Source: Candidatus Peregrinibacteria bacterium
GTDB taxonomy: Bacteria > Patescibacteriota > Gracilibacteria > UM-FILTER-43-11
Assembly (NCBI GenBank): GCA_016932505.1
Contig: JAFGCT010000007.1
Coordinates: 8,625-48,624, forward strand
DNA: 40,000 nucleotides
Direction: 5' to 3'
This document shows, in pieces, positions 1,411 to 28,555 of this stretch. Position numbers and translations under genes: made by a program. The notes below the pieces were generated by a model that was not told the DNA's origin, made no database searches, and worked only from the letters and a program-made list of their open reading frames with translations. How positions within the stretch are numbered: the stretch's first letter is position 1; each line of letters starts with the position of its first letter.

Positions 1411-1782
1411 TTAATATTTATCATTTTCGATATTTGCCGTACACGTTGCAACAACTTTACCAAAAATTCTCATCAATTCATCTGACTCCTTAAAAAGATC
1501 CGCTAAGTTATTAATATCAAGATTATAATTTGCATGCATAATAAGCTCTAGCCAATATTTTGTCTCTTTGGCCTCTTTTAATACAATATTGATTTTATGC
1601 TTAAAATCTTTTTTTGACTCAGCAGCATTAGCTTCTCTATAATTTGCACCAATACTTGTTCCAGAGCCAATAGCCTGACCAGATAACTTATAATTTATCT
1701 GATTTCTCGGTAAAAGTTTTATTATAGATATTAAATTTTTACTGAACTTCAAAGTTCTTTCTTCTAATTCAATTTTATTCAT
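1411..1782 (-). CDS. Four-helix-bundle protein (23S rRNA intervening-sequence protein family)
   Basis: EERTLKFSKNLI...GTSIGANYREANAAESKKDFKHKINIVLKEAKETKYWLELI is the typical family signature. The ATG at 1780-1782 is preferred over the upstream TTG. Confidence 0.85.
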   Translation of the reverse strand: MNKIELEERTLKFSKNLISIIKLLPRNQINYKLSGQAIGSGTSIGANYREANAAESKKDFKHKINIVLKEAKETKYWLELIMHANYNLDINNLADLFKESDELMRIFGKVVATCTANIENDKY

Positions 1783-1861
1783 TTTTATATACAATTATCA
1801 ATTAAATACAAAATCAAGAAGTCATAATATCAATAGTTAACACATTTTGTAAATATTTAGT

Positions 1862-2039: not shown

Positions 2040-4094
2040 ATGAAAAGATTTTCAAAAAGCTTAATTGCAATCATTATCGCCACTATATTAATGGCAATTA
2101 TTTCTCTGCCGGATTCAGTTAAGTCAAAATTACCTGGTGACCCAGTTTCCGAATGGATAAAAGAGCAAAAGGTTACCCTTGGTCTTGATCTTCAGGGTGG
2201 TACTCAACTTGATTACAGAATTGACTTAAAAAGCGCAATTGCAAGAAATGAAGATGGTGACGATTCGAATGATGTACGTATTCAGGATGTTATAGAAGGA
2301 GTACGAACTACTATTGAACGTCGTGTTAATGGTCTTGGTGTATCAGAACCACAGATTTATCTTTCTAATGTTGCAGGTGAAGAACATATTATTGTGGAAT
2401 TAGCGGGTATTAAGGATATAAACGAAGCAAAAGCAGTTGTAGGTAAAACTATTCAGTTAGAATTTAAAGAAATGAAAACTGAACAAGATGCTGAAGATAT
2501 TACTGCTATTCAAACTAATGCAGATGAAATTCTTAAGAAGGCTTTAAAACCAGATGCTGATTTTATAAAAGTTGGTGAAAATGCAGTAACTAGCGATGGA
2601 AAAATTACCTTTGAACAGAATATTGAAAAATTTGAAAGCGAGCTTCCTGCACAATACAAAGGTTTATTCCCTAATATGACTGCCGGAGAAGTTTACAATA
2701 AAACAGTTCAGGGAAGCGGAGAATATATGATAGACGCAGGAGGGCAAGTAGCTGAAAAAAAGACAATTAAAATCGTTCAGTTTGTAAGTTCTGCAGAAAA
2801 AGAAAAGACTGAAACCACTGATGAACAAGTTCAAGCCAGTCACATTTTAATAAAATTCGCAGATGTAGACCCTGAAACTACTAGAACTAAGGAAGAAGCT
2901 CTTGCTCTAGCTACTGAAGTAATGGAAAAAGCAAAGGCAGCACCTGATAAATTCGCTGACCTTGCAATAGAATATTCAGAAGGTCCTACTGGGCCTAAAG
3001 GTGGAGACCTTGGTTTATTCGGACGTGGGCAAATGGTTGCAGCATTCGAAGATGCAGCATTTGGAATGGAAGTCGGACAAATATCTGACGTTGTAGAAAG
3101 TGAATTCGGATATCATATTATTATGCTAACCGATAGAGTTGAAGCTTCTGAAACTACAAAAATGGAAAAAAGTTATACCTATAACGAAATTTCATTAGAT
3201 GCTACACCTGACCCATGGAAACCAACTGGATTAGATGGCTCACACTTTAAATACGCAACTGTTACTTATACTCAAATAGGAACTCCACAAGTAAACATTC
3301 AATTTGATAGTGATGGTGGTGATTTATTTGAGCAAATAACAGAAAGGCTTACTGGCCAAAGACTAGCTATTTTCGTAGGTGGTGAACTTATCTCTGCCCC
3401 TAATGTAAATGAAAAGATTTCTGGAGGAAGTGCTGTTATTACTGGTGATTACACATTACAGGAAGCACTTCAGCTTGCTAACGACCTTAATACAGGTGCA
3501 ATCGATGCCCCTATCATTCTTAGTGGTCAGTACACAATAAGTGCTACACTTGGAGATAACGCACTTAGAGTCTCTCTTTTTGCAGGTATTGTAGGTCTTA
3601 TCGTTCTGATTCTATTTATGATTCTTTATTACAGATTACTTGGAATATTCGCAGTTCTTGCACTTATTGTTTACTCCATTATTTTTATCTTCATTCTTAA
3701 AACAATGCCAATTGTAATGACCTTAGCAGGTATAGCAGGTATTATTCTTTCTATAGGAATGGCGGTAGATGCGAATATACTGATATTTGAACGTACAAAA
3801 GAAGAACTTAATGAAGGAAAGAATTTCACAGCATCTATTCAAACAGGTTTTGAACGCGCATGGACTTCTATAAGAGACTCAAATATTTCATCTCTTATTA
3901 CTTGTGTGATTTTATGGTCATTCGGTAATTCTATTATCAAAGGATTCGCTCTTATGCTTGGTCTTGGTATTGCAGTTTCAATGTTTACAGCTATTACAGT
4001 TACACGCCAATTTATTCAAACTCTAACAGGAACTAAATTATCAAAGAATACATTCTTACTTGGAACAAAAGAGGTTAAGATTATTAATAAATAA
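2040..4094 (+). CDS. secD: Protein translocase subunit SecD carrying an inserted PrsA/PpiD-like region with a parvulin (PpiC) PPIase domain
   Basis: N-terminal TM helix then LGLDLQGGTQL. P1-domain motifs LAIFVGGELISAPNV...ISGGSAVITG. C-terminal TM bundle with GMAVDANILIFER. The parvulin signature (ASHILIKF...GGDLGLFGRGQMVAAFEDAAF...SEFGYHIIML) is embedded at aa 263-366. Confidence 0.9.
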   Translation: MKRFSKSLIAIIIATILMAIISLPDSVKSKLPGDPVSEWIKEQKVTLGLDLQGGTQLDYRIDLKSAIARNEDGDDSNDVRIQDVIEGVRTTIERRVNGLGVSEPQIYLSNVAGEEHIIVELAGIKDINEAKAVVGKTIQLEFKEMKTEQDAEDITAIQTNADEILKKALKPDADFIKVGENAVTSDGKITFEQNIEKFESELPAQYKGLFPNMTAGEVYNKTVQGSGEYMIDAGGQVAEKKTIKIVQFVSSAEKEKTETTDEQVQASHILIKFADVDPETTRTKEEALALATEVMEKAKAAPDKFADLAIEYSEGPTGPKGGDLGLFGRGQMVAAFEDAAFGMEVGQISDVVESEFGYHIIMLTDRVEASETTKMEKSYTYNEISLDATPDPWKPTGLDGSHFKYATVTYTQIGTPQVNIQFDSDGGDLFEQITERLTGQRLAIFVGGELISAPNVNEKISGGSAVITGDYTLQEALQLANDLNTGAIDAPIILSGQYTISATLGDNALRVSLFAGIVGLIVLILFMILYYRLLGIFAVLALIVYSIIFIFILKTMPIVMTLAGIAGIILSIGMAVDANILIFERTKEELNEGKNFTASIQTGFERAWTSIRDSNISSLITCVILWSFGNSIIKGFALMLGLGIAVSMFTAITVTRQFIQTLTGTKLSKNTFLLGTKEVKIINK

Positions 4095-5270: not shown

Positions 5271-5380
5271 TTGTCTGAACTGTAATTAACGATTCACGTT
5301 GTATGATTTAGAATTAACGATTATAAATATACATTTATCCGTTAAACATACAACGTTAATCATAAATCGTTAATCGCAAT
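5271..5380. repeat. Imperfect palindromic spacer starting with the ttgtctgaactgtaatt family terminus and built from taacgatt/aatcgtta words
   Basis: aattaacgattcacgttgtatg at about 5284-5305 pairs with catacaacgttaatcataaatcgttaat at about 5347-5374. The left end is 16/17 identical to the TTGTCTGAACTGTGATT motif seen elsewhere. Confidence 0.75.
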
Positions 5381-5393
5381 AATACATACAAAA

Positions 5394-8340: not shown

Positions 8341-8368
8341 GTAGAGACGCGATTAATCGCGTCTCTAC
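8341..8368 (+). terminator. topA terminator, a perfect 28-nt palindrome
   Basis: gtagagacgcgattaatcgcgtctctac followed by ttttat. Confidence 0.8.
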
Positions 8369-10128: not shown

Positions 10129-10305
10129 TTGTCTGAACTGTGATTTTTTATGATTATTTTTGATGGTCGTGATTTTTTTATTAAGTGAATTGGGATTACA
10201 ACAAATACACATTCAATCGTAGAGACGTCCCGCTAAGCGGGACGTCTCTACGGTGTATTTATCATAAGAAAATCATTATAATCAAAAAAATCACAGTTCA
10301 GACAA
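10129..10305. repeat. 177-bp palindromic intergenic element with 17-bp terminal inverted repeats and a GC-rich core hairpin (MITE/REP-like)
   Basis: ttgtctgaactgtgatt at 10129-10145 is the exact reverse complement of aatcacagttcagacaa at 10289-10305. The centre is cgtagagacgtcccgc-taa-gcgggacgtctctacg (10218-10252), a perfect 16-bp stem. Confidence 0.9.
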
Positions 10306-15034: not shown

Positions 15035-15037
15035 TAA

Positions 15038-15105
15038 ACTATAACTATAACTAAGACTATAACTAAGACTAATACTAGTACAAGTTATAGTAATAGTTAT
15101 AGTTT
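15038..15105. repeat. Palindromic spacer of ataact/agttat words
   Basis: actataactataactaagactataactaagactaatactagtacaagttatagtaatagttatagtt. Confidence 0.85.
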
Positions 15106-15166: not shown

Positions 15167-16189
15167 TTACTTATATTCATAAACTGTAAAAGTACACTTA
15201 CCAGCAAAATAGCCATGAATATAATATTCACCAGTTTTTCTGAATTCAACCGTATCACTTGTTCTATTTGAACCTTTTAGTGCCCAAATTCCGATTCCTT
15301 CAACCTCTCGTAGAAATGCTGTATCATTCTTGTTTTCACAATCATATTGAATTTTAAATCGTCCACTTGTTACATTAAAACTTCCATAACCCAATTGCCC
15401 AAATTCTTCGTTGGCATATTTTGCAATTTCTACATATCTTTGTGTTGGTGCTGCTGGCTTAATTGTTTCAATCGGTTTAGTTGGTATTTTTGGCTTAGTT
15501 AATTCAGTAGTTTTAGTTGGTACAGTAGACTTAATTGGTTCAGTTATTCTATTTTGAGTTACCTGTGTATTTTTCTCCAAAGCATTAGAAATAACACTAG
15601 GTATATCAGAGGTAACTTCATTTTGGGCTTTTTTATTAGCTGAAGTTGCAAGTATCAATAAAACAATAATAAAAATAATAAATTTTTGAAAAGCATGTGA
15701 CTGTTTTCCAAACCATTTGAGAGTTTTAATGATTTCTATAAATAGCTTATGTAACATTCCAAATAGCATACCAATTATTTCAAATATATTTATATTTTCC
15801 TTGGTAGTTTTTTCTTGTTGTACTTTTCTTGTTGGAAAAGGAATACCAGTAAACTCTTTAAATTGTCTTTCTAAGTGAAATTTAAAATTAGCCCTTCCGC
15901 CACCAAACCATAGTTCAATCACTTTTATATCATCTTGGTCATAAGCCAACTGCTTTTTCGCACGGTCTTTACTATATTTAGCACTTCCCCACATTCCATA
16001 CACTTCTATATACACATCATAACCAGGCAAATAAAAATCAGGATGAATAATAAGGCCATTAGACATTTTTAATGGATCCTCATAAATATACTCAACACCA
16101 TTATCATATAAATAATTAGCGACATCTTTTTCATAATTACTTTTAACAATTTCACCCTGCTTTGTTTTAATTTGTTTTGCGAAGTTCAT
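15167..16189 (-). CDS. Membrane protein with an N-terminal PD-(D/E)xK-like nuclease-fold domain, TM segments, a Thr/Pro/Lys-rich linker and an unknown C-terminal domain
   Basis: The N-terminus SNYEKDVANYLYDNGVEYIYEDP...IHPDFYLPGYDVYIEVYGMWG resembles the PDDEXK module found at the N-terminus of helicase IV-type proteins. Hydrophobic stretch FIIFIIVLLILATSA. Linker PIKSTVPTKTTELTKPKIPTKPIETIKPAAPTQ. Confidence 0.6.
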   Translation of the reverse strand: MNFAKQIKTKQGEIVKSNYEKDVANYLYDNGVEYIYEDPLKMSNGLIIHPDFYLPGYDVYIEVYGMWGSAKYSKDRAKKQLAYDQDDIKVIELWFGGGRANFKFHLERQFKEFTGIPFPTRKVQQEKTTKENINIFEIIGMLFGMLHKLFIEIIKTLKWFGKQSHAFQKFIIFIIVLLILATSANKKAQNEVTSDIPSVISNALEKNTQVTQNRITEPIKSTVPTKTTELTKPKIPTKPIETIKPAAPTQRYVEIAKYANEEFGQLGYGSFNVTSGRFKIQYDCENKNDTAFLREVEGIGIWALKGSNRTSDTVEFRKTGEYYIHGYFAGKCTFTVYEYK

Positions 16190-16328: not shown

Positions 16329-17117
16329 ATGACTAAATTTAATGATATCAACATTAAAAAATGGAAAGAGTCAGATGTATGGACTGACAGCCTGTGGTTA
16401 ATTGATAAGAGGGTCAAAAGTGGTAAGCATAATAATAGTTATCACGGCAATTTTGTTCCACAAATTCCACATCAATTAATTTTAAGATATTCAAAAAAAG
16501 GTGACACAGTTTTTGATCCATTTTTAGGAAATGGTACAACAGCATACGAATGCGAAAATCTTGAAAGAAATTTAATAGGAATTGATATACAAAAAAAACT
16601 AATCACTCAGGTTCAAAATAATATTGATACAAATAAAAACTTTATTGAATTATTGAATGGTGATAGTACGGAGGAAAAAACATTCAATGAAGTTGAAAAT
16701 ATTTTAAAAAAATACAACAAAAAGAAAATACAATTTGCTATTTTGCATCCACCTTATGCCGATATAATTAAATTTAGCGACCTAAAATCTGATCTATCTA
16801 ATATAAAATCAACAAAAGAATTTTTAGACAAATTTTCAGTTGTATTAAAAAATACGATTGGAATTTTAGAAAAAGGAAGATACTTAGCAATTATTATAGG
16901 AGATAAATACGCTGATGGTAAATGGATACCATTAGGTTTTAATTGTTTAGATGAAGCTCAAAAGATAGGCCTAATACTAAAAAGTATTATAATTAAAAAT
17001 ATAGAAGGTAATCGCGCTAAACAAAACAAAGAACCAATCTGGAGATACAGGGCACTTGCTAGCGATTATTATATTTTTAAACACGAATATATATTAATTT
17101 TCAAAAATGATTACTAA
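16329..17117 (+). CDS. DNA amino-methyltransferase (N6-adenine or N4-cytosine type) of R-M module 1
   Basis: AdoMet motif VFDPFLGNGTT preceded by HGNFVPQIPHQLI, with the catalytic-type motif LHPPYADI placed downstream. Target base and specificity cannot be told from the sequence. Confidence 0.75.
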   Translation: MTKFNDINIKKWKESDVWTDSLWLIDKRVKSGKHNNSYHGNFVPQIPHQLILRYSKKGDTVFDPFLGNGTTAYECENLERNLIGIDIQKKLITQVQNNIDTNKNFIELLNGDSTEEKTFNEVENILKKYNKKKIQFAILHPPYADIIKFSDLKSDLSNIKSTKEFLDKFSVVLKNTIGILEKGRYLAIIIGDKYADGKWIPLGFNCLDEAQKIGLILKSIIIKNIEGNRAKQNKEPIWRYRALASDYYIFKHEYILIFKNDY

Positions 17118-17781
17118 TCCCTTCAAAGATACAACTGCATCCAACTACGATTTTAACATTATGAGTGACCTCAAATGGCATTGCACAAAATGTGAGTTGA
17201 AATCAGGCCAAGCAAAAACATGGCAAATATGGCGACATAACGGAATACAATTAGATACAGATGAAAAAGGCAATTTTTATAAAACTTTTTTATGCAAAAA
17301 ATGCAACAATAAGACAATTCATAGAAAATTAAAATCACTTACAATTCTAGAAGAAACAAAAACTAGATCTGGTCTATCAAGAAAATTAACTAAAAAAATA
17401 AAAAACATTTTAAAATGCGAAGAAGCATTATTCTTGAGGAAAATGGAAGAAAGGGAATTGGAAGTTGATCACAAATTTCCTCAAATAAGGTGGAATAAAA
17501 ACGAAGAAGAAAATAAAAATGATATGACCGAGAAAGAGATTGAACAAAAGTTTATCCTATTAACAAGAAGTAATAACCTCTTAAAATCAAGACATTGTGA
17601 AAAGTGCTTTAAGACTGGTAAGAGGGGTAATTTTCCTGGAATATATTATTGGTTTAAAGGAGGTAAGAATTGGGATAAAAAAATAGAAAAACATAATAAA
17701 AAAGGCTGTGAAGGCTGTTTTTGGAACGATCCTTACACTTGGAGAGAAAAGCTAAATAACTTAGTTAATAAAATAATTTAA
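17107..17781 (+). CDS. HNH-type endonuclease with Cys4 ribbons; candidate restriction enzyme of module 1
   Basis: ELEVDHKFPQIRW...LLTRSNNLLKSRHCEKC is HNH-like. CxxC pairs are CTKC...CKKC and CEKC...CEGC. It overlaps the methyltransferase stop by 11 nt. Confidence 0.65.
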   Translation: MITNPFKDTTASNYDFNIMSDLKWHCTKCELKSGQAKTWQIWRHNGIQLDTDEKGNFYKTFLCKKCNNKTIHRKLKSLTILEETKTRSGLSRKLTKKIKNILKCEEALFLRKMEERELEVDHKFPQIRWNKNEEENKNDMTEKEIEQKFILLTRSNNLLKSRHCEKCFKTGKRGNFPGIYYWFKGGKNWDKKIEKHNKKGCEGCFWNDPYTWREKLNNLVNKII

Positions 17782-17800
17782 CAATGTTAATAATTTACTT

Positions 17801-17810
17801 GTATATATAC
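17801..17810 (+). promoter_or_regulatory. Candidate C-box-like palindrome upstream of the controller gene
   Basis: gtatatatac is a perfect 10-bp palindrome 13 nt upstream of the ATG at 17823. It is AT-only, so it could arise by chance. Confidence 0.25.
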
Positions 17811-17822
17811 TTAAAATAGAAT

Positions 17823-18035
17823 ATGATAATTATAGATAAATACAAAGTTAAAGAAATAATGGCAAAAAGGAAAATAAACAATTATACTGAATTGGCTAAA
17901 ATGCTTGGCATTTCAAAAAATCAACTATCAAACATTTTATCAAATAGATTCAGACCGTTTAAAAGCAATGTTGAAGAAATCGCTGAATTTTTGAAAGTAA
18001 GCCCACTTGATATAATTAATGAAAAAAAGAAATAA
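17823..18035 (+). CDS. XRE-family helix-turn-helix protein, likely R-M controller (C) protein
   Basis: NNYTELAKMLGISKNQLSNILSN is an HTH motif. It is 70 aa and sits directly upstream of an endonuclease-methylase pair. Confidence 0.7.
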   Translation: MIIIDKYKVKEIMAKRKINNYTELAKMLGISKNQLSNILSNRFRPFKSNVEEIAEFLKVSPLDIINEKKK

Positions 18036-18038
18036 ATA

Positions 18039-19232
18039 ATGACCACACACGTATTTATAGTAGATTCAATAACATTTAAAATTCATTTGGAATACCTTTT
18101 TGCTGGTACTGGTGCTAAAAAAGGAAGCTCTCACAATAATGAAGGTTATTATGTAGATTTCAATAATAACCCAACAACAAATTATCATTATATAACTGAA
18201 AATATGTTATCAGGTATGATAGCGGATGGAAGCAGAATAAGATGTGGAGATAATATTTTATTTTATTTACAGCAAAATTACTCAAATAAAATTTTTGAAG
18301 GAAAATTTTATGGAATTTTTAAGGCTACACACGACTGGTCTTTTCTTGATAACTATGATAATAGTCAATTTCTTAATATTGAACTTGATAAATCATTAAC
18401 ATTTAGAACTCTTATTGAACCATACAGAGTTTATCCAGAAGGGGTAACAGAGTGGGAAGCTTTGGATGAAATTAGAAATATTCAATCTCCAAATCAAATG
18501 CTCTGGAGTTTGATTTATCGCAAACTCAAGGGGAATCGAGGTAATACAATGATTACTATGTATGAGTCAGAGAGATTATGCCAATTAATAAGGGATAAAA
18601 ACTTAAGACAAGAAATAAACACTAATAATCATAAGCTATCATTTGATCAAATTACGCAAAAAATCATAATTTTAAATGAAAATACCAATAATTATATTGG
18701 CAGAAAAGAGGAGATAAATTTACTTCCAAGATTAATCAGTAAATATAACGCAAATAAATCATTTGAGACGCATTTACAAGCATACATTGTCAAAAATATA
18801 GGTATAGGCATCAACCAAACTCTTGATAATTGCATTCTAATGGCTAATTCTGAAATTGAATGGCTCGGAAATGAGGTTTCCTGTGGTGTTGGTATGCAAA
18901 GAATCGACGTTATGCTTTCAGCCAATTTTAACGGACAGAGAACACTAATACCAATAGAATTAAAATCAGTTGAAGCTGATATAAACAATACAAAGCAAAT
19001 ACAAAGATATATCGATTGGATAGAACAGTACTATACTCCCAATAAGCAAAGCGATATTCAGCCCATCTTAATTTCTAAAAAGATTGATGATAAAAACACA
19101 GCAAAATATAAAAGCATTATATCTACTTTTAATGACTTTAATTTGCGTAATGCAACGAGATGTGAAAATCTTAAATATATTGAATACTATTTAGAAAATA
19201 ATAATTTAACCTTTAGTAAAATCACTTATTAA
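18039..19232 (+). CDS. Candidate type II restriction endonuclease of module 2
   Basis: Positioned between the C protein and a Dam-class methylase, with gaps of 3 and 2 nt. The C-terminal region contains a PD-(D/E)xK-like pattern (RIDVMLSA...IPIELKSVEA). The N-terminal domain of about 170 aa is unassigned. Confidence 0.55.
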   Translation: MTTHVFIVDSITFKIHLEYLFAGTGAKKGSSHNNEGYYVDFNNNPTTNYHYITENMLSGMIADGSRIRCGDNILFYLQQNYSNKIFEGKFYGIFKATHDWSFLDNYDNSQFLNIELDKSLTFRTLIEPYRVYPEGVTEWEALDEIRNIQSPNQMLWSLIYRKLKGNRGNTMITMYESERLCQLIRDKNLRQEINTNNHKLSFDQITQKIIILNENTNNYIGRKEEINLLPRLISKYNANKSFETHLQAYIVKNIGIGINQTLDNCILMANSEIEWLGNEVSCGVGMQRIDVMLSANFNGQRTLIPIELKSVEADINNTKQIQRYIDWIEQYYTPNKQSDIQPILISKKIDDKNTAKYKSIISTFNDFNLRNATRCENLKYIEYYLENNNLTFSKITY

Positions 19233-19234
19233 TT

Positions 19235-20302
19235 ATGAATTATATCGGTTCAAAGAAATCATTACTAAAATTTTTAGAAGAATCAATCTACAAAATTGTT
19301 GGAAAAAAAGATTTTGATTTTCTAGATTTATTTGCTGGTACAGGTATAGTTGGTCAACATTTTAAGGAGAGGGGGCATAAGATAATAGCAAATGACTTAC
19401 AATATTATAGCTATGTATTAAATAAAAATTATATAGAAAATCATAAAAGATTGGAATTCAAAGGGATAGAAAAGGAAATAAATAAAATTAAAAATATAAA
19501 TATTAATAATCGTGCAGAATTTGTGTGTGAATACCTAGATAACATTGATTATATTGAAGGTTTTATTTACAAAAATTACTGTCTAGGTGGCACTAAAAAT
19601 TCAAAATACGAAAGACAATATTTCTCCGATGATAATGGTAGAAAGACGGATGCGATTAGACAAAAAATTGAAGATTGGTACAAAAAAAATATTATTAATG
19701 ACAATGAATATTATTTTCTCCTAACAACACTTATTGAAAATATTGATAAAGTAGCAAACACTGCTTCAGTCTATGGTGCATTTTTAAAAAAATTAAAAAA
19801 ATCTGCCCACACAACATTTAATATGAAGCCAGCATATTTCCTACATAATGATAAAAAACATAACGTTTACAATGAAGATATTGAGGAACTAATTAATAAG
19901 GTCGAAGGGGATGTTTTATATTTAGATCCACCTTACAATCATCGCCAATATGCTCCAAATTATCATATATTGGAAACAATTGCCAAATATGACAACCCAA
20001 TAGTTAAGGGCAAAACTGGACTCAGAGATTACTCAAATCAGAAATCAAAATTCTCACAAAAAAAAGAGGTATTAAATTCATTTAATAATATAATCCAAAA
20101 CGCAAAAGTTAAATATATATTTCTTAGCTATAATAACGAGGGATTAATGACTGAGCAAGAAGTAAAAAATATTATGACGAAAAGAGGAGAATATGGAATT
20201 TTTAAAAAAGAATATAGTAGATTCAAAGCTGATTCTGATGACAACAGGGAGCATAAAGCAAATTCAGTAACTGAATATTTACACTATGTAATATGTAATT
20301 AG
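19235..20302 (+). CDS. D12-class (Dam-like) N6-adenine DNA methyltransferase of module 2
   Basis: MNYIGSKKSLL, DLFAGTG and LYLDPPYNHRQY motifs in the alpha-class order. Confidence 0.88.
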   Translation: MNYIGSKKSLLKFLEESIYKIVGKKDFDFLDLFAGTGIVGQHFKERGHKIIANDLQYYSYVLNKNYIENHKRLEFKGIEKEINKIKNININNRAEFVCEYLDNIDYIEGFIYKNYCLGGTKNSKYERQYFSDDNGRKTDAIRQKIEDWYKKNIINDNEYYFLLTTLIENIDKVANTASVYGAFLKKLKKSAHTTFNMKPAYFLHNDKKHNVYNEDIEELINKVEGDVLYLDPPYNHRQYAPNYHILETIAKYDNPIVKGKTGLRDYSNQKSKFSQKKEVLNSFNNIIQNAKVKYIFLSYNNEGLMTEQEVKNIMTKRGEYGIFKKEYSRFKADSDDNREHKANSVTEYLHYVICN

Positions 20303-20391: not shown

Positions 20392-21168
20392 GTGAATTAT
20401 ACCAAACAAATCATCGCCAAAAATGTTGCTAAGAGTATTGGAATCTTTTTAGTTTCAGGAATTATGTTTTATTTCGGAGTTAAGTATACTGCAAACGGCA
20501 TAAAAGCGGGAAAATGGACTAATGCATACATATTACAAATGATGTTAATGACTGCTGGGTTAATCTTAGGAATTTTATTAGTAAAAATGAATACTTGGTT
20601 TGAAAGATTTTCGGATAAAATTCTTGATTCAATAGAGTATGCGTTAATAGGGAATAGTGGAGAAAAACAAGTTAAAGCAGAGCTGGATAAATTTCTTGAT
20701 ATAAATGAATATAAAATTTATCGAAATATTGTATTACCAAAGAGGAAATTTGATATTGATATTATAGTACTGGGTCCAAAAGGATTAACGATATTTGAAG
20801 TAAAAAAATGGAAGGATAAAGTTATTTTTTATGAGAATGAAAAATACTTTGAGAAGATAAAACAAAAATCAGAATATAAAACAGAGATAACAAAGTGGTA
20901 TAAGAGAGATCCAAGAGAAAAGTTAGGTTGGTCATGCAATAATTTGAAGAAATATTTGGAGGAAATGGGTATTAATACAACAAATTTGCCAATTCACAAA
21001 AGCCTTGTATTCCCTAATGCCGTAGCTGAATGGAAAGGAAGCCCTGGTGTTTTTATTATTTCTGGACTAGAAGGACTAAAGAAATATTTTGTTGATGATA
21101 ATCGCAAAAAAATTTCAACTGATGATTATATAAAGTTAAAGGAGATATTTGATACATTAATAAAATAA
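20392..21168 (+). CDS. Membrane-anchored NERD (nuclease-related domain) protein
   Basis: Two N-terminal hydrophobic helices, then GNSGEKQVKAELDKFL...YKIYRNIVLP...DIDIIVLGPKGLTIFEVKKW, the NERD signature. GTG start as in the ORF track. Confidence 0.75.
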   Translation: MNYTKQIIAKNVAKSIGIFLVSGIMFYFGVKYTANGIKAGKWTNAYILQMMLMTAGLILGILLVKMNTWFERFSDKILDSIEYALIGNSGEKQVKAELDKFLDINEYKIYRNIVLPKRKFDIDIIVLGPKGLTIFEVKKWKDKVIFYENEKYFEKIKQKSEYKTEITKWYKRDPREKLGWSCNNLKKYLEEMGINTTNLPIHKSLVFPNAVAEWKGSPGVFIISGLEGLKKYFVDDNRKKISTDDYIKLKEIFDTLIK

Positions 21169-21508: not shown

Positions 21509-22102
21509 TTACTCAGCACTCTCTCTTAAATGTTTATGCTCTTCAAGAAATTTCTCATCACCTATTACTATCCCATCACCCAAAAGAACTTTTAAAAAAG
21601 TAACAGTTTGAGCGGCAATGTGCCCTTCTGTAATTTCACCACTTCGAGGATTTAAAACACCTCTGCCTTTTTTTGACGATAAACCCAAATGCCTTATTTC
21701 TTTTGGCAAACATTCCTTGGGTAAATAATAAACGTAACCTACACCTTGTTTAAGTTCTGGTTTTGGAACCAGAGACAATTCAGCAATTCTCTGCATAGCC
21801 TCCTCTCTAGTATTTGGAATTGTGCCATCTTCTATTGCATTAGCCCTTCCATTAGAATATTCATAAAAATGTAACCCCATTTGAGCAAGAGCAAATTCTT
21901 GTGTAATATCAGTAGTTAAATCAGGTTCCTCTGAAAGTTTAACTTCAGCAAAAACCGCAGAAACCCTTGCACGACATTCGGAACAAAAAAGCACAATCCT
22001 TTCTGACGCAAGTTCATAGCGACAATATTTATCATATATTAGCTTGGCTAATTCTAATGATTGATCCTTATCTAAATGCTTGTGTTCTGTTTTTTCAGAC
22101 AT
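21509..22102 (-). CDS. Hypothetical protein (197 aa)
   Basis: Clean ORF. The start was moved to MSEKTEHKH (ATG at 22100-22102). It contains CRYE...CSEC cysteines but no family that I recognise. Confidence 0.6.
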   Translation of the reverse strand: MSEKTEHKHLDKDQSLELAKLIYDKYCRYELASERIVLFCSECRARVSAVFAEVKLSEEPDLTTDITQEFALAQMGLHFYEYSNGRANAIEDGTIPNTREEAMQRIAELSLVPKPELKQGVGYVYYLPKECLPKEIRHLGLSSKKGRGVLNPRSGEITEGHIAAQTVTFLKVLLGDGIVIGDEKFLEEHKHLRESAE

Positions 22103-22177
22103 ATATTGTTTATTTAATTGTAGTTGAAACAAAATTGGGGCATATAATAACATATAAGCCTTTAAAGTCCAACCTTT

Positions 22178-22278
22178 AATATTGAGTTAATAATCGAATT
22201 GAAATCATTTGAACTAATCAGTTAAATCATAAGAAATCACAGTTCAGACAACTAATCATTAAATCACAGTTCAGACAA
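22178..22278. repeat. Half-copy of the palindromic element family plus a duplicated aatcacagttcagacaa terminus
   Basis: 22178-22253 is about 87 percent identical to 23399-23473 by hand alignment. The 17-mer occurs at 22235-22251 and again at 22262-22278. Confidence 0.85.
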
Positions 22279-22303
22279 TAATTTTTTATGATAAAATAAA
22301 CTC

Positions 22304-22807
22304 ATGAAAAAGAAAGTGGTCGTAAATGACCTTATGCAAAAAAATTATGTGTATTATCTAACAGAACCTGTTGGAAAGAATTTTCATCCTGAATTTAAAC
22401 CGGAACTTTCACCGAAACAAATGTTGGAACTGGGTGTTTTTGGTGGTAAATATATGACAGATTGTAAAAAAGAATTTCCGAAAGATTGGTACGCAAAAGC
22501 AAAGTTATGTCATGAGTTTCACGACCCAAAACTAAATTTTTTCGAAATAAATGCTTCTCAACCTCTTTCCGTTTGGCAAAAAAAAGACTGGATATATCAC
22601 GAGGATCCAAGAGGGTGGTTTCAATGGTATTGCAGGTATTATATGGGCAGAAGGTGTGATGATGATGAGAGACAAATTAAAAGGTGGAAGGCAATAGTCA
22701 GACATATTGCGCAAATTAAAAAGAACTGTTCACCAAGAGAACTGGTTTGCAGAAGAAAACAAAGGCAAGCTGTTTTACACTGGGCGTATGACAGCAGAAA
22801 GATTTGA
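22304..22807 (+). CDS. Conserved hypothetical protein (167 aa)
   Basis: Clean ORF with the distinctive motifs GVFGGKYMTDC and DPRGWFQWYCRYYMGRR. I believe this motif pattern recurs in uncharacterised proteins but cannot name a family. Confidence 0.7.
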   Translation: MKKKVVVNDLMQKNYVYYLTEPVGKNFHPEFKPELSPKQMLELGVFGGKYMTDCKKEFPKDWYAKAKLCHEFHDPKLNFFEINASQPLSVWQKKDWIYHEDPRGWFQWYCRYYMGRRCDDDERQIKRWKAIVRHIAQIKKNCSPRELVCRRKQRQAVLHWAYDSRKI

Positions 22808-22856
22808 CAACTTCTTCTTCTCCATTTAATATTACGCACCTTTAATCAATTAAAAT

Positions 22857-23339
22857 ATGAGTGATATAATTGGAAGAAAAGGCCCAAGAATTTATACAGA
22901 TTTAATGGTGCCAGGTGAAACCTATGCAGAATTTGATACAACACAAGAGCTTGAAGATCTTCATTCAAAAATACGTTTAGCTTTGCAAGATATTGAAGCT
23001 AAAGAAACAATATATGACGAAGATGCCACCGCCTACGGTGAAAAAGGGAAAAGATATCGAAGAAGAATGGAACCGGTTATGCTACATAGGTTTGTAGCTC
23101 AATTCGAAAAACCTGAAAAAAGAAGCCCAAAAGGCGAAAATCCTGTTGATAAAATTGGACTTCGAGTAATATTAAAAGGCTGTGGAGAAATTAGAGATAT
23201 GGTAGAAGCATTGATGCTTACAAAAGGTCATGAGCTTATTGATGTAAATGAAGAAGCACCAACAGGGGATAAAAAAATAACAATGTACGATTATTTTGCT
23301 AATAAATCAGGTGTTGTAAGAAGTGAATCAGAACTGTGA
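22857..23339 (+). CDS. Hypothetical protein (160 aa)
   Basis: Clean ORF. Its stop TGA (23337-23339) lies inside the left inverted repeat. Confidence 0.6.
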   Translation: MSDIIGRKGPRIYTDLMVPGETYAEFDTTQELEDLHSKIRLALQDIEAKETIYDEDATAYGEKGKRYRRRMEPVMLHRFVAQFEKPEKRSPKGENPVDKIGLRVILKGCGEIRDMVEALMLTKGHELIDVNEEAPTGDKKITMYDYFANKSGVVRSESEL

Positions 23340-23473
23340 TTTATGTGATTGAATTGATTCTGTCTATGATTATCAACAATCCATATATTCCAACTTGTAA
23401 TATTCAGTTAATAAAATGATTAAAATCATTTGAATTAATCAGTTAAATCAAAAAAATCACAGTTCAGACAACT
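23328..23473. repeat. Palindromic intergenic element, about 145 bp, same family as 10129-10305
   Basis: The left end tcagaactgtgatt... and the right end ...aatcacagttcagacaa (23455-23471) are inverted. The left 87 bp equals the reverse complement of 25133-25219 (84/87). Confidence 0.9.
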
Positions 23474-23490
23474 GATAATTAATCACACAA

Positions 23491-23534
23491 AAATCCCCCG
23501 ACGCACTGCTAGTCAAACTAACAAGCGCCGGGGT
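23491..23534 (-). terminator. Rho-independent terminator of the acidic protein gene
   Basis: The minus strand reads aaccccggcgcttgttagtttgactagcagtgcgtcgggggattttt. Confidence 0.7.
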
Positions 23535-23560
23535 TTTCTGTTCAATTTTAAAAATAGTTT

Positions 23561-24847
23561 TCAGGCAGGAGTGGGAGCTTCTGGAGCAGGAGCTTCTGGG
23601 GCGGGAGGAGCTACCGCGTCGTCATTGTAAGGCTCTTCGGGCACGTCGCCCTCATCATCTTCAGCCTCTGTCTCTTCGTCCGGCTCGTCATCGGTTAGTT
23701 CAAATTTAGCGGTCTTTGACCTCCTTTCCAATGCTTTTTTTTGTTGTTTGAGCTCGTTTGTAAGCTGCTTATTTTCCTCAAGAGTGTCTTTAAAAGCCTT
23801 GATGAGTACGGGCAATCCTTCAACCATTATTTGATTCGGCTGATTGACTTCCCGAAGTTCATCGAGGAACTGCTCGTTGGTCTTCCGGGTTTTAAGCTCA
23901 TCTCTGAGCTTTTCAATCTCGGCGCCAGCCCTAGTAAGCGATTCCGTCAACTCGGCATTGTCGTTGATGAGATTAGTCTTCTCTTTGTTGAACCTCTGTT
24001 TTTCGATAAACGAAAGATAGAAAAGAACTCCGTAACAAATGACAAAAAGAGTGGCTATTGCAGCAAACAACGATCTTCTTTCGCGAAGCCGACTTTGTAA
24101 GGAAGCTGCCGCAATACACGGCCGACCAATATAATAACAATTGCCGTCATCATTCAAGGCATTACCAGACTCTGGAGGAGCTTTTTCCTCCACGTTTACT
24201 GAGGCGAACAAACCCTTATCAAGTGGTGGTTTATCATGTCCCATATCTTCAAAAGTACCACCAGTTCCAACGTGTCCATGCCTGTAATCAGTGGTTTCCC
24301 TTCCAGCATCGTCGTCGACATCTTCGTCGTCTGAGCTTTCGTTTTCCACATCCTCATCCACAGGCTCCAAGGTAATTCTTTGACCACCCGCCCCCTCTAC
24401 TGTATCGTCCTCAACATGGTCTAAAATATTTGGACCCTGCGCTCTCTCCTCAGCAAAAAAGTAGCGTTCATCATTTGACATCTGCCCGTCATCGTCGCAA
24501 CCAGGAAGTAGTTTTTCAAAATCAGGAAGAGCATGAGTATTAACAAACAATCCATCAAAATCAGGGGCACCAGCTCCTGCTCCTTCAGCAGCAGCTCTCT
24601 CCGCGGCAACATCCACCTTCGCAGTATCATCTTCTCTTTCATCTCCACCATCGGTTTTACCGTCAGGTTCAGCATCAGGCTCATCATCAGGTTCGCCATC
24701 GGTTTTACCGTCAGGTTCAGCATCAGGCTCATCATCACCTAAATCCAAATTCCAATTCTCAAACGTTGCTCCTATTCCTTCTTCTCCATTTCCTCCATCA
24801 GTTGTTACACCGCCTTGTCCTTTTTTTCCATCGTTTTGTTCTGACAT
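23561..24847 (-). CDS. GC-rich acidic low-complexity protein with one TM helix, a coiled-coil region and a Pro/Ala/Glu tail (428 aa)
   Basis: Repeats DAEPDGKTDGEPDDEPDAEPDGKTDG, TM segment LFAAIATLFVICYGVLFYLSFI, heptad-like region NLINDNAELTESLTRAGAEIEKLRDELK, and tail APPAPEAPAPEAPTPA. Confidence 0.8.
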   Translation of the reverse strand: MSEQNDGKKGQGGVTTDGGNGEEGIGATFENWNLDLGDDEPDAEPDGKTDGEPDDEPDAEPDGKTDGGDEREDDTAKVDVAAERAAAEGAGAGAPDFDGLFVNTHALPDFEKLLPGCDDDGQMSNDERYFFAEERAQGPNILDHVEDDTVEGAGGQRITLEPVDEDVENESSDDEDVDDDAGRETTDYRHGHVGTGGTFEDMGHDKPPLDKGLFASVNVEEKAPPESGNALNDDGNCYYIGRPCIAAASLQSRLRERRSLFAAIATLFVICYGVLFYLSFIEKQRFNKEKTNLINDNAELTESLTRAGAEIEKLRDELKTRKTNEQFLDELREVNQPNQIMVEGLPVLIKAFKDTLEENKQLTNELKQQKKALERRSKTAKFELTDDEPDEETEAEDDEGDVPEEPYNDDAVAPPAPEAPAPEAPTPA

Positions 24848-25084
24848 TTACTTCTCCCTTTCAATACATGTGCTTAAACACATTTGGTTATTTTTTCACA
24901 CACTTACGTGTATTTGTTTACTACCTATATATACCTATTCAAAATTGAACAGGGTAAGTTTTAAATAGAACACTGTAAACAGATTCTATTCAAAATCAAT
25001 CCCTGTTCACCCGTACATGTAAAAGAGCATTAGGAGGGGAATTTTACAGCTTTTTGGGGTAAAAAGTCAAATTGTATGGTTATC

Positions 25085-25222
25085 TTAACTGTAATTTATG
25101 TAATTACTGTTATGAAAATTATTTTAATACGATTATTAACTGAACATTACAAGTTGGAATTTATGGATTGTTGATAATCATAGACAGAATCAATTCAATC
25201 ACATAAATCACAGTTCAGACAA
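25085..25222. repeat. Palindromic intergenic element, about 138 bp, same family
   Basis: The degenerate left terminus tcttaactgtaatttatgtaatt faces the right terminus aatcacataaatcacagttcagacaa (17-mer at 25206-25222). Confidence 0.85.
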
Positions 25223-25306
25223 AAGAATCTCAAATCACAAATGAAAAATTCTCTTGACTTTTGTGTACCAACGTATTAACATATTAACACATTAAAACAC
25301 TTTGAT

Positions 25307-25630
25307 ATGAAATTGGAAAGGGACCTTACAAAAAATCCGGGATTCAAAAAGCTCTGCAAAGGGTTTGCATCATTGAATGATGAAAAGTCAGTCGCTGCAC
25401 TATTACGCGACGTTTGCACTATAAATGAACTTATAGAAATGAGTGGAAGAATTGAGGCAGCAAGCTTAATTAAACAGGGGCTTTCTTATCGTGTAATAAA
25501 TAAAAAAACAGGCGTAAGTACTACAACAATAACACGTATAGCTAATTGGATGAATCATGGAATGGGCGGTTATGAATTAGCCCTTGGTCACCATCACCAT
25601 AACTCAAAAAGTCTGACAGCAAGAAGTTAG
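25307..25630 (+). CDS. TrpR-like YerC/YecD-family DNA-binding protein
   Basis: LLRDVCTINELIEMSGRIEAASLIKQGLSYRVINKKTGVSTTTITRIANWMNHGMGGYELAL matches the YerC/YecD pattern. Confidence 0.85.
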   Translation: MKLERDLTKNPGFKKLCKGFASLNDEKSVAALLRDVCTINELIEMSGRIEAASLIKQGLSYRVINKKTGVSTTTITRIANWMNHGMGGYELALGHHHHNSKSLTARS

Positions 25631-27765: not shown

Positions 27766-27872
27766 AACACAACATAGCATAATGCTATGAAAAATATTTT
27801 ACAACTTGTTTTTTACCAGACATCAAATACACCTATATTCAAGCGCTACAATCACAAATCAAAAAACACAAA

Positions 27873-28460
27873 TCACAATTTTACTTCCCCATCCGCAAAC
27901 ATCTGAATCACCTTCGGATACCACTCTTTTTCAAGCGTTTGGACTTTTGCTTTTAAGGTTTCTGGCGTATCTTCGGGGCTAACCTCAACTGATTTTTGGA
28001 CAACAATAGGACCGGCATCCAAATCATCCGTTACGATATGTATTGTCATTCCACTTTCCTTTTCACCGGCATCTATTACAGCCTTATGAACATCTAAATT
28101 CATACCCCCTGCATATTTTGGAAGTAAACTAGGATGAACATTAATTATTCGATTTTTAAATTCTTTTACTGTTTCTGAACCAATTATCTTCATATAACCG
28201 CCAAGAACGACCAAATCAACTTCAAAATACTTTAAAGTATCCAAAACGGACCGCTCATATGCCTCAGGAGTAAGTTCCTTTGCATTATAAAAATAAACTT
28301 TGATTCCATTATCTCTGGCTTTCTGCGCCGCTCCGCAATCGGCTTTATTCGTTATAAGGCAGGTGATTTCAACATTAGAAAGTTCTCCTCGTGCCTTAGC
28401 ATCGAGTATTGATTGAAAATTTGTCCCATTTGTAGATGAAAGGACTGCAATTTTAAACAT
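27873..28460 (-). CDS. purN: Phosphoribosylglycinamide formyltransferase
   Basis: IAVLSSTNGTNFQSI...INVHPSLLPKYAGG...GMTIHIVTDDLDAGPI. Confidence 0.93.
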   Translation of the reverse strand: MFKIAVLSSTNGTNFQSILDAKARGELSNVEITCLITNKADCGAAQKARDNGIKVYFYNAKELTPEAYERSVLDTLKYFEVDLVVLGGYMKIIGSETVKEFKNRIINVHPSLLPKYAGGMNLDVHKAVIDAGEKESGMTIHIVTDDLDAGPIVVQKSVEVSPEDTPETLKAKVQTLEKEWYPKVIQMFADGEVKL

Positions 28461-28555
28461 AATAACTAAATTAAATTACATATTCATTCTAAATCACAAT
28501 TCAAAAATCACAAATCACAAATTCAAAGTTTTTTCGCTTTTTGTAATGGTATATT

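Follow-up and report, generated by a model that had tools for sequence, protein, structure and literature searches.

The inverted repeat around an orphan gene of a Peregrinibacteria bacterium consists of two copies of a dispersed palindromic element whose ends also bracket GxxExxY genes

The DNA analysed here is a stretch of 40,000 nucleotides (the window) from a Candidatus Peregrinibacteria bacterium (assembly GCA_016932505.1, contig JAFGCT010000007.1), in which a long inverted repeat encloses a single gene for an acidic protein of 428 amino acids. A first-pass annotation, made from the letters of the sequence, had read this arrangement as an invertible (phase-variable) segment or as a composite mobile cassette. 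We found instead that each arm of the inverted repeat is the larger part of a palindromic, non-coding element of ~145 bp, that this element belongs to a repeat family dispersed in the window and across phyla, and that the same two ends elsewhere bracket a small gene of the GxxExxY/PDDEXK_3 family. It is likely, in our judgement, that the two copies bracket the 428-amino-acid gene by happenstance and that the gene is not part of the element. We are equally confident that the locus is not a dedicated inversion switch or cassette.

A repeat search of the window returned inverted arms at 23328-23431 (plus strand) and 25116-25219 (minus strand), which are 104 nt long, 92% complementary and separated by 1684 nt. 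A direct count between 23328-23414 and the reverse complement of 25133-25219 gave 84 identities in 87 positions, as expected from the three mismatches reported in the first-pass annotation, which had also correctly placed each arm inside a palindromic element. The left copy of the inverted repeat comprises the left arm and centre of one such element (C, 23326-23471), and the right copy comprises the centre and right arm of another (D, 25080-25222). The ends of both elements read TTGTCTGAACTGTGATT ... AATCACAGTTCAGACAA, an end being made up of TGATT motifs at 9-bp spacing and the terminal 17-mer TTGTCTGAACTGTGATT, and the two elements align over their full length at 125 of 145 positions, in opposite orientation. 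This end motif is not unique to the C/D locus, since the 17-mer occurs eight times in the window when up to three mismatches are allowed, compared with 0.15 occurrences expected.

The window contains five such elements (A to E), all of them intergenic. Element C, of ~146 bp, has a degenerate terminus, GAATCAGAACTGTGATT, on its left arm (23326-23362) and a perfect one, AAATCACAGTTCAGACAA, on its right arm (23432-23471). Element D belongs to the C subfamily and lies in the opposite orientation; its right arm (25186-25222) is perfect, and its left arm (25080-25115) is decayed, the G of every TGATT motif having been lost or changed to A. Element B (22163-22278) is partial, consisting of a centre and a right arm oriented as in C, and its terminal motif is doubled, with copies 27 bp apart at 22235-22251 and 22262-22278. 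Element A (10129-10305) is complete, with two perfect termini and a central GTAGAGACG...CGTCTCTAC hairpin, and element E (5271-5392, right boundary approximate) is divergent, a terminus being recognisable at one end only (TTGTCTGAACTGTAATT). With an nhmmer profile whose arms came from other genomes and none from the window, eight arms were detected in the window, at E-values from 3e-8 to 0.06. These include 25186-25222 of D (3e-8), 23432-23471 and 23331-23362 of C (1e-7 and 7e-5) and element E (0.056); the left arm of D was missed. Elements B, C and D are clustered within 3 kb among orphan genes. The elements are thus short and non-coding, with terminal inverted repeats and multiple dispersed copies (five elements and eight arms in 40 kb), which are properties of a miniature inverted-repeat transposable element (MITE).

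The same ends were found in many other genomes. We scanned one genome per species (2 x 596 Gb) for exact copies of the 17-mer, for which a calculation predicts ~70 matches by chance, and obtained at least 120 loci (referred to below by L numbers), with nearly all the matches listed sharing further arm structure. Among these, the hosts belong to at least ten phyla, including Chloroflexota, Bacteroidota (many), Poribacteria, Patescibacteria, Ignavibacteria, Desulfobacterota, Gammaproteobacteria, Armatimonadota, Planctomycetota and Spirochaetota, and at finer rank to Dehalococcoidia, Caldilineaceae, Thiotrichaceae, Chthonomonadaceae, Planctomycetaceae and Leptospiraceae. In 151 unique arms AATCA recurs at positions -9, -18 and -27, with a period of 9 bp, and conservation stops sharply past the 17-mer. 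Complete elements elsewhere are mostly 85-116 bp long, and single arms and gene-free tandem arrays (L056, L062) are also present. Near-identical copies are numerous per genome, with six of the loci listed coming from one Poribacteria assembly, for example, and the positions of the elements are not conserved. Genes flanked by two elements occur in other genomes too (L065, L089), and for five elements and ~35 intergenic regions we estimate ~0.7 doubly flanked genes per window by chance. For both of these reasons, the geometry of C and D is not special.

At the spacer positions between TGATT motifs, the identity between the two arms of an element is at or below that expected for independent arms (for example, 0.18 vs 0.31). 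Since the spacers do not covary, the conserved feature is the motif array on each arm and not a hairpin, and a reading of the elements as RNA or single-stranded DNA hairpins was discarded for this reason. From these arrays we infer recognition by a protein acting on duplex DNA. Rfam contains no relevant family, either for the whole window at gathering thresholds or for 22100-25400 at E <= 10.

An all-against-all comparison of the open reading frames (ORFs) in the 120 loci listed revealed one small family that is tightly bracketed by arms, at six loci from Bacteroidales, Saprospiraceae, Chitinophagaceae and Dehalococcoidia. The proteins, of ~130 amino acids and 61-77% identical, belong to PF13366 (PDDEXK_3), equivalent to TIGR04256 ('GxxExxY protein'), a family that has been listed as 'unknown' (PMC3424549). 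Residues E32, D71, E81 and K83, which are expected to be catalytic, are invariant in all six. The 474-bp unit of L003 (1663-2136) begins with a left arm, whose last TGATT motif includes the ATG of the ORF, and closes with a right arm, by which the tail of the protein and its stop codon are encoded. As an independent test, we chose 80 metagenome loci by protein similarity alone and evaluated the 69 with enough flanking sequence. An arm core lies within 120 bp of the GxxExxY gene in 56 of the 69 (81%), where the calculated chance of an arm is ~0.2% per side, and the canonical bracket, with the left arm upstream and the right arm downstream, is present in 31 (45%). A search of the PDB sequences with the GxxExxY profile returned nothing. 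A transposase was also sought between ends 0.45-4 kb apart, and the only genes found were ordinary ones between separate short elements (L065, L089).

The gene-bearing units (~470 bp) sit in operons, mostly of restriction-modification systems, and exactly at cistron junctions, as in L003 and in units among L132-L207 (L145, 1463-1957; L170; L174). The gene that follows starts 1-3 nt past the right end of the unit and, where identified, encodes HsdS, HsdM, HsdR or a ResIII helicase. The ORF upstream continues into the left arm in 14 of 23 units and is terminated there by one or the other of two TGA triplets of the arm, so that the protein ends in ..V* or ..SEL*. Similarly, in the 120 genome loci listed, the stops of ORFs of at least 80 codons pile up at two positions of the arm (17 and 13 cases, vs ~0.6 per other position). 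These positions are +5 and +12 of the arm, and unrelated long ORFs (up to 1041 amino acids; L034, L109, L111, L120) end in ..LSEL* or ..(I/V)V*, encoded by TTG TCT GAA CTG TGA or GTC TGA of the arm. In the window, the orphan gene upstream of element C (22857-23339, plus strand, 160 amino acids) ends ..SESEL* inside the left arm of C, which supplies its last codons (TCA GAA CTG TGA) and stop. The overlap of the left repeat with this stop codon, which the first-pass annotation had pointed out, is therefore a trait of the family.

In the simplest reading of these results, the short palindromes would be gene-less, MITE-like relatives of the ~470-bp unit in which the same two ends bracket the gene for the ~130-amino-acid GxxExxY (PDDEXK_3, PD-(D/E)XK) nuclease. 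The elements would be mobile now or would have been so formerly, the short palindromes spreading as gene-less derivatives, and the TGATT arrays would be recognised on double-stranded DNA by a protein, probably the GxxExxY nuclease itself. At the C/D locus, two non-coding palindromic copies of ~145 bp, in opposite orientation and in the intergenic regions on either side of a lineage-specific gene, would simply make up an inverted repeat around an ordinary gene that has a promoter and a terminator of its own. The partial near-identity of C and D would come from recent copying or gene conversion between copies. More tentatively, the TGATT-array ends may mark a class of minimal mobile elements of prokaryotes that has not been described before. 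In such a class the GxxExxY nuclease would be the mobilising enzyme, and the units would settle at cistron junctions, mainly in restriction-modification operons, with the left arm giving the upstream gene its stop (..V* or ..SEL*) and the downstream gene starting 1-3 nt past the right end. Horizontal transfer would have carried the gene-less palindromes, as products of the unit, into more than ten phyla and also into the bacterium of the window, with its small genome.

The identity between C and D is not evenly distributed. It amounts to 84 of 92 positions over 23326-23414 and to 37 of 59 over 23415-23473 (heterogeneity p = 4e-5), and over the latter segment C matches B at 52 of 59 positions. 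The pattern is a mosaic, with no uniform divergence, and it fits gene conversion or recombination among copies, or a chimeric copy. The earlier suggestion that the near-identity of the repeats reflects recombination or gene conversion thus gains support, with the qualification that decay of one arm of D, in which the TGATT motifs suffered G-to-A changes or losses, may contribute to the same pattern.

Several observations weigh against the interpretation given above. There is no GxxExxY gene within the 40-kb window. The short palindromes, when their arms are sorted into the left and right types of the gene-bearing unit, comprise 37 with one of each type (LR and RL), 28 with two right-type arms (RR) and 16 with two left-type arms (LL), a mixture that speaks clearly neither for nor against descent from that unit. 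No consistent target-site duplication was seen at 72 short elements or 23 gene-bearing units, and no presence/absence polymorphism of the elements was found; for these two reasons mobility is something that we infer. With regard to the locus itself, the mosaic shows either an interaction between C and D or an unusual history common to both, the C-D segment may at some time have been inverted by homologous recombination, and the 428-amino-acid gene, given its G+C content at third codon positions (GC3) of 0.37 and its lack of homologues, may have been acquired together with the flanking copies.

A programmed switch, in which a site-specific recombinase flips 23415-25132 and makes an acidic membrane protein phase-variable, would explain why long, near-identical inverted repeats flank a single gene and why this gene (23561-24847, minus strand) is opposite in strand to its immediate neighbours, at 22304, 22857, 25307 and 25765. 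However, no recombinase, invertase or transposase domain turned up when the sizeable ORFs of the 40-kb window were scanned with Pfam, and the promoter-like site, the whole ORF and the terminator are all inside the segment, so that inversion would not gate expression. The inversion switches that are known use short repeats specific to their recombinase, whereas the repeats here are a dispersed, multi-phylum family also found around unrelated genes, and we consider such a switch highly improbable. It is also very unlikely that the two flanking elements, through their outer ends (23326 and 25222), moved the orphan gene or brought it in as a unit of 1.9 kb. These ends are indeed arranged as left arm ... 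right arm, in the manner of the family, no homologue of the gene was found anywhere searched, its GC3 exceeds that of its neighbours, and elements B, C and D are clustered among orphan genes. Nevertheless, a composite transposon is flanked by insertion sequences with a transposase, and the flanks here are ~145 bp long and encode nothing, with no mobilising enzyme present in the window. The outer left end is moreover the degenerate one, neither the unit nor its cargo gene was found anywhere else, and the raised G+C content is mostly a matter of amino-acid composition (G+C of 0.65 at first codon positions, GC1). No duplication is common to the sequences on the two sides of the unit (...AGAAGTGA to the left of 23326, AAGAATCT to the right of 25222), which is a weak test, as the whole family shows none.

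The elements could, on the other hand, be selected host signals, such as protein-binding or RNA-processing sites at cistron boundaries, and not mobile DNA. The conservation of the ends across phyla and the precise placement of the gene-bearing units, whose left arm supplies the upstream stop and whose right end lies 1-3 nt before the downstream start codon, would agree with this. We nonetheless regard it as unlikely, because there are many near-identical copies per genome, including the gene-free tandem arrays of L056 and L062, because their positions are not conserved, and because an RNA hairpin is supported neither by covariation of the spacers nor by a match in Rfam. What we consider a realistic prospect, while not the expected one, is that C and D are independent copies that now serve as an incidental recombination substrate, their 104-nt inverted homologies undergoing RecA-type exchange that leads to gene conversion and occasional neutral inversion. 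The C/D mosaic, with C resembling B over 23415-23473, argues for such exchange, which is compatible with a chance bracket of two repeat copies and adds to it. Decay of the D arm or a chimeric founder copy could, however, also account for the mosaic.

Compared with known systems, the elements resemble in form bacterial MITEs such as Correia/NEMIS of Neisseria and RUP of Streptococcus pneumoniae, which are also short (85-180 bp) and non-coding, have inverted termini, occur in many intergenic copies per genome, can overlap gene ends, can break short-read assemblies and have a larger relative with the same ends that carries a gene. They differ from these in that no target-site duplication was seen, in that the termini are conserved at 17 of 17 positions across phyla and not just within a genus, and in that each arm repeats a 5-nt motif every 9 bp. 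In addition, the larger relative here encodes a ~130-amino-acid protein of the PD-(D/E)XK family, whose activity is predicted from sequence, and no known transposase. The repetitive extragenic palindromic (REP) sequences, their doublets (REPINs) and the IS200-like Y1 transposases associated with them (RAYTs) are similar in being palindromic doublets of ~100 bp, intergenic and dispersed, without target duplication and associated with a small partner of one gene, on both sides of which the same repeats lie. The arms described here, in contrast, lack the GTAG-headed REP hairpin (a 20-40-nt imperfect palindrome) and are not complementary at the spacer positions. No family resembling Y1 transposases recurs beside the elements in the 120 loci listed, PDDEXK_3 being the sole recurring small family, and REPs are confined to a species, while the ends described here recur in many phyla. 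Hairpins of the GTAG...CTAC kind do exist as a separate repeat and are sometimes nested inside elements. With inversion switches (Hin/Gin-type, FimB/E, Bacteroides invertons) the elements share inverted repeats that bracket a DNA segment, but the repeats here are long and dispersed, no recombinase was found in the sizeable ORFs of the window, and the segment is a complete transcription unit, which leaves no on/off logic.

The 23S rRNA intervening sequences, of which the ORF-bearing ones were used in this comparison, also have inverted terminal sequences around one ORF of ~120 amino acids (PF05635, 'four-helix-bundle') and occur in overlapping phyla. The ORF family and the terminal sequences are different, and the elements described here lie outside rRNA genes. 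The window itself contains a gene for a 127-amino-acid '23S rRNA-intervening sequence protein' (1411-1794, minus strand; PF05635, E 5e-17), in a patch of 23% G+C. On its two sides lie arrays of another short motif, inverted relative to each other (TTAACATTTATCA... and ...TGATAAATGTTAA, at 1397-1436 and 1841-1894), so that this unit (1397-1894) has the same architecture as the GxxExxY units, with inverted arrays and one small ORF. Relatives of the protein are present in L060 and L095.

Integron attC sites were discarded by inspection, since GTCTGAAC/GTTCAGAC is one base longer than RYYYAAC/GTTRRRY, the arrays contain no ORFs and no integrase was seen. DnaA boxes, IHF sites, parS and omega heptads were considered as well, and none fits the motif together with the 9-bp spacing. 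A BLAST search of phage records with the C/D locus found nothing, and a plasmid search with the consensus element returned AT-rich noise only. A full-text literature search with the end sequences retrieved unrelated eukaryotic primers only, and no match to the repeats was found in the searchable literature on MITEs and Patescibacteria, on GxxExxY, on PDDEXK_3/PF13366, on hsd genes with a small ORF, or on the intervening-sequence protein with restriction-modification.

For the C/D locus, these findings are deflationary, as the inverted repeat is best annotated as a by-product of a dense interspersed repeat. The repeat family is of more interest than the locus, its ends remaining the same at every base between Chloroflexota and Bacteroidota on the one hand and Poribacteria and Patescibacteria on the other. 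The large GxxExxY/PDDEXK_3 family gains a testable candidate role, namely binding or cutting of TGATT-array ends, and the units illustrate how a tiny element can sit between restriction-modification cistrons while the upstream gene keeps a stop and the downstream gene its start codon. The family also accounts for assembly breaks and, in many metagenome-assembled genomes, for the short tags (..SEL*, ..V*) at the C-termini of unrelated proteins.

Other assemblies of this organism are limited to the short-read contigs of SRR13394437. These match the window at 100% identity and break off within elements A and D, in keeping with the multi-copy nature of the repeats. Contig L212 ends at 10237 and contig L121 at 25192, exactly 31 nt inside the right end of D. 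The latter end cannot stem from copy C, which hints at further copies of the C/D type elsewhere in the SRR13394437 sample. Three intergenic regions (25223-25264, 27850-27881 and 28492-28544) contain A-rich repeats of the AATCACAAATCA type, which resemble the AATCA arrays of the arms without the terminal 17-mer and may be eroded arms. The GTAG-headed, REP-like hairpins (GTAGAGACG-loop-CGTCTCTAC) constitute a second repeat, found at 8341-8368, directly after topA and followed by a T-run, and at 10219-10251, nested in the centre of element A. They are also present in L037, L068, L089 and L092, and the composite of arms and GTAG hairpin recurs in the Patescibacteria metagenome-assembled genome JAHJBZ01. 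Seven exact copies of the 17-mer lie on IMGVR_UViG_3300023179_000445 (L123/L128/L129), a 26-kb contig classed as viral, which represents a piece of a host genome or else a phage into which the elements have spread.

The 428-amino-acid gene is an orphan with a good Shine-Dalgarno sequence. A promoter-like site, TTGACT-18-TAAAAT (25041-25070, minus strand), matches the consensus at 10 of 12 positions, by which match alone it is identified, and lies just inside element D. The intrinsic terminator proposed earlier at 23491-23534 (minus strand) holds up well, with a hairpin of -34.1 kcal/mol (z -4.97) followed by the U-run UUUUUGUGUG. Inspection of the sequence likewise bore out the repeats described upstream of the gene (24935-25009), namely two direct copies of ctattcaaaat (24935-24945 and 24986-24996) and the inverted pair tgaacaggg/ccctgttca (24946-24954/25001-25009), which may be an operator. 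The description of the gene as GC-rich was right as far as total content is concerned (0.40-0.48 across the gene vs ~0.33 around it), but most of the excess is at first codon positions (Asp, Glu, Gly and Ala codons), mainly because of the acidic, Gly/Ala-rich composition of the protein. The GC3, compared with 0.18-0.32 in the neighbouring genes, is a modest anomaly.

The encoded protein has an isoelectric point of 4.1. Its N-terminal 255 amino acids are acidic (net charge -51) and predicted to be disordered, and they are followed in the prediction by one hydrophobic segment (~260-282), long helices up to residue 383 and an acidic, Pro-rich tail. This topology suggests a bitopic membrane protein that includes a coiled-coil domain, as far as such predictions go. 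An AlphaFold model from the single sequence has a predicted local distance difference test score (pLDDT) of 51. Searches of 5.8 G proteins and 1.84 G representatives retrieved only the protein itself, as was the case for the 160-amino-acid protein. The matches to Pfam and NCBIfam families are far below the curated cut-offs, and a PDB sequence search gave nothing significant. No contig on record encodes the 428-amino-acid protein, and exact-protein look-ups for four local genes returned nothing; the look-ups that did match all came from SRR13394437, at 100% identity, on contigs that stop in repeats. Within the gene, in-frame 12/48-nt repeats (24622-24729) encode (E/D)PDAEPDGKTDG repeats, and these may explain why the intact gene is absent from the short-read contigs on record.

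The neighbour downstream of element D, outside the element, is a TrpR-family gene (25307-25630, plus strand; PF01371, E 1e-19). Genes identified with Pfam elsewhere in the window include those for SecD-PPIase, RNase H, thioredoxin, HU, TopA, GroES/EL, PurN, FemAB and RibBA, together with a methylase island. No tRNA or tmRNA gene is present in the window. An alternative genetic code with TGA as a sense codon was discarded, since long ORFs read through under table 11 and TAA, TAG and TGA each end well-supported genes. The methylase island (16329-20302, 25-29% G+C) comprises an N6_N4_Mtase gene (16329-17117), a D12-class methyltransferase gene (19235-20302) and a 397-amino-acid ORF with a weak match to NucS-like nucleases, and is followed by a NERD-domain gene (20392-21168); the whole is probably an islet for restriction-modification or defence. 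Directly after groEL (15036-15105) there is an AT-rich inverted repeat of 30 nt, made of CTATAA-like units, and three tandem 36-nt repeats (15444-15551) are found within a 340-amino-acid ORF (15167-16189, minus strand). The SecD protein (2040-4094) has a PPIC-type peptidyl-prolyl isomerase domain (Rotamase, residues 256-366) inserted between its P1 subdomains.

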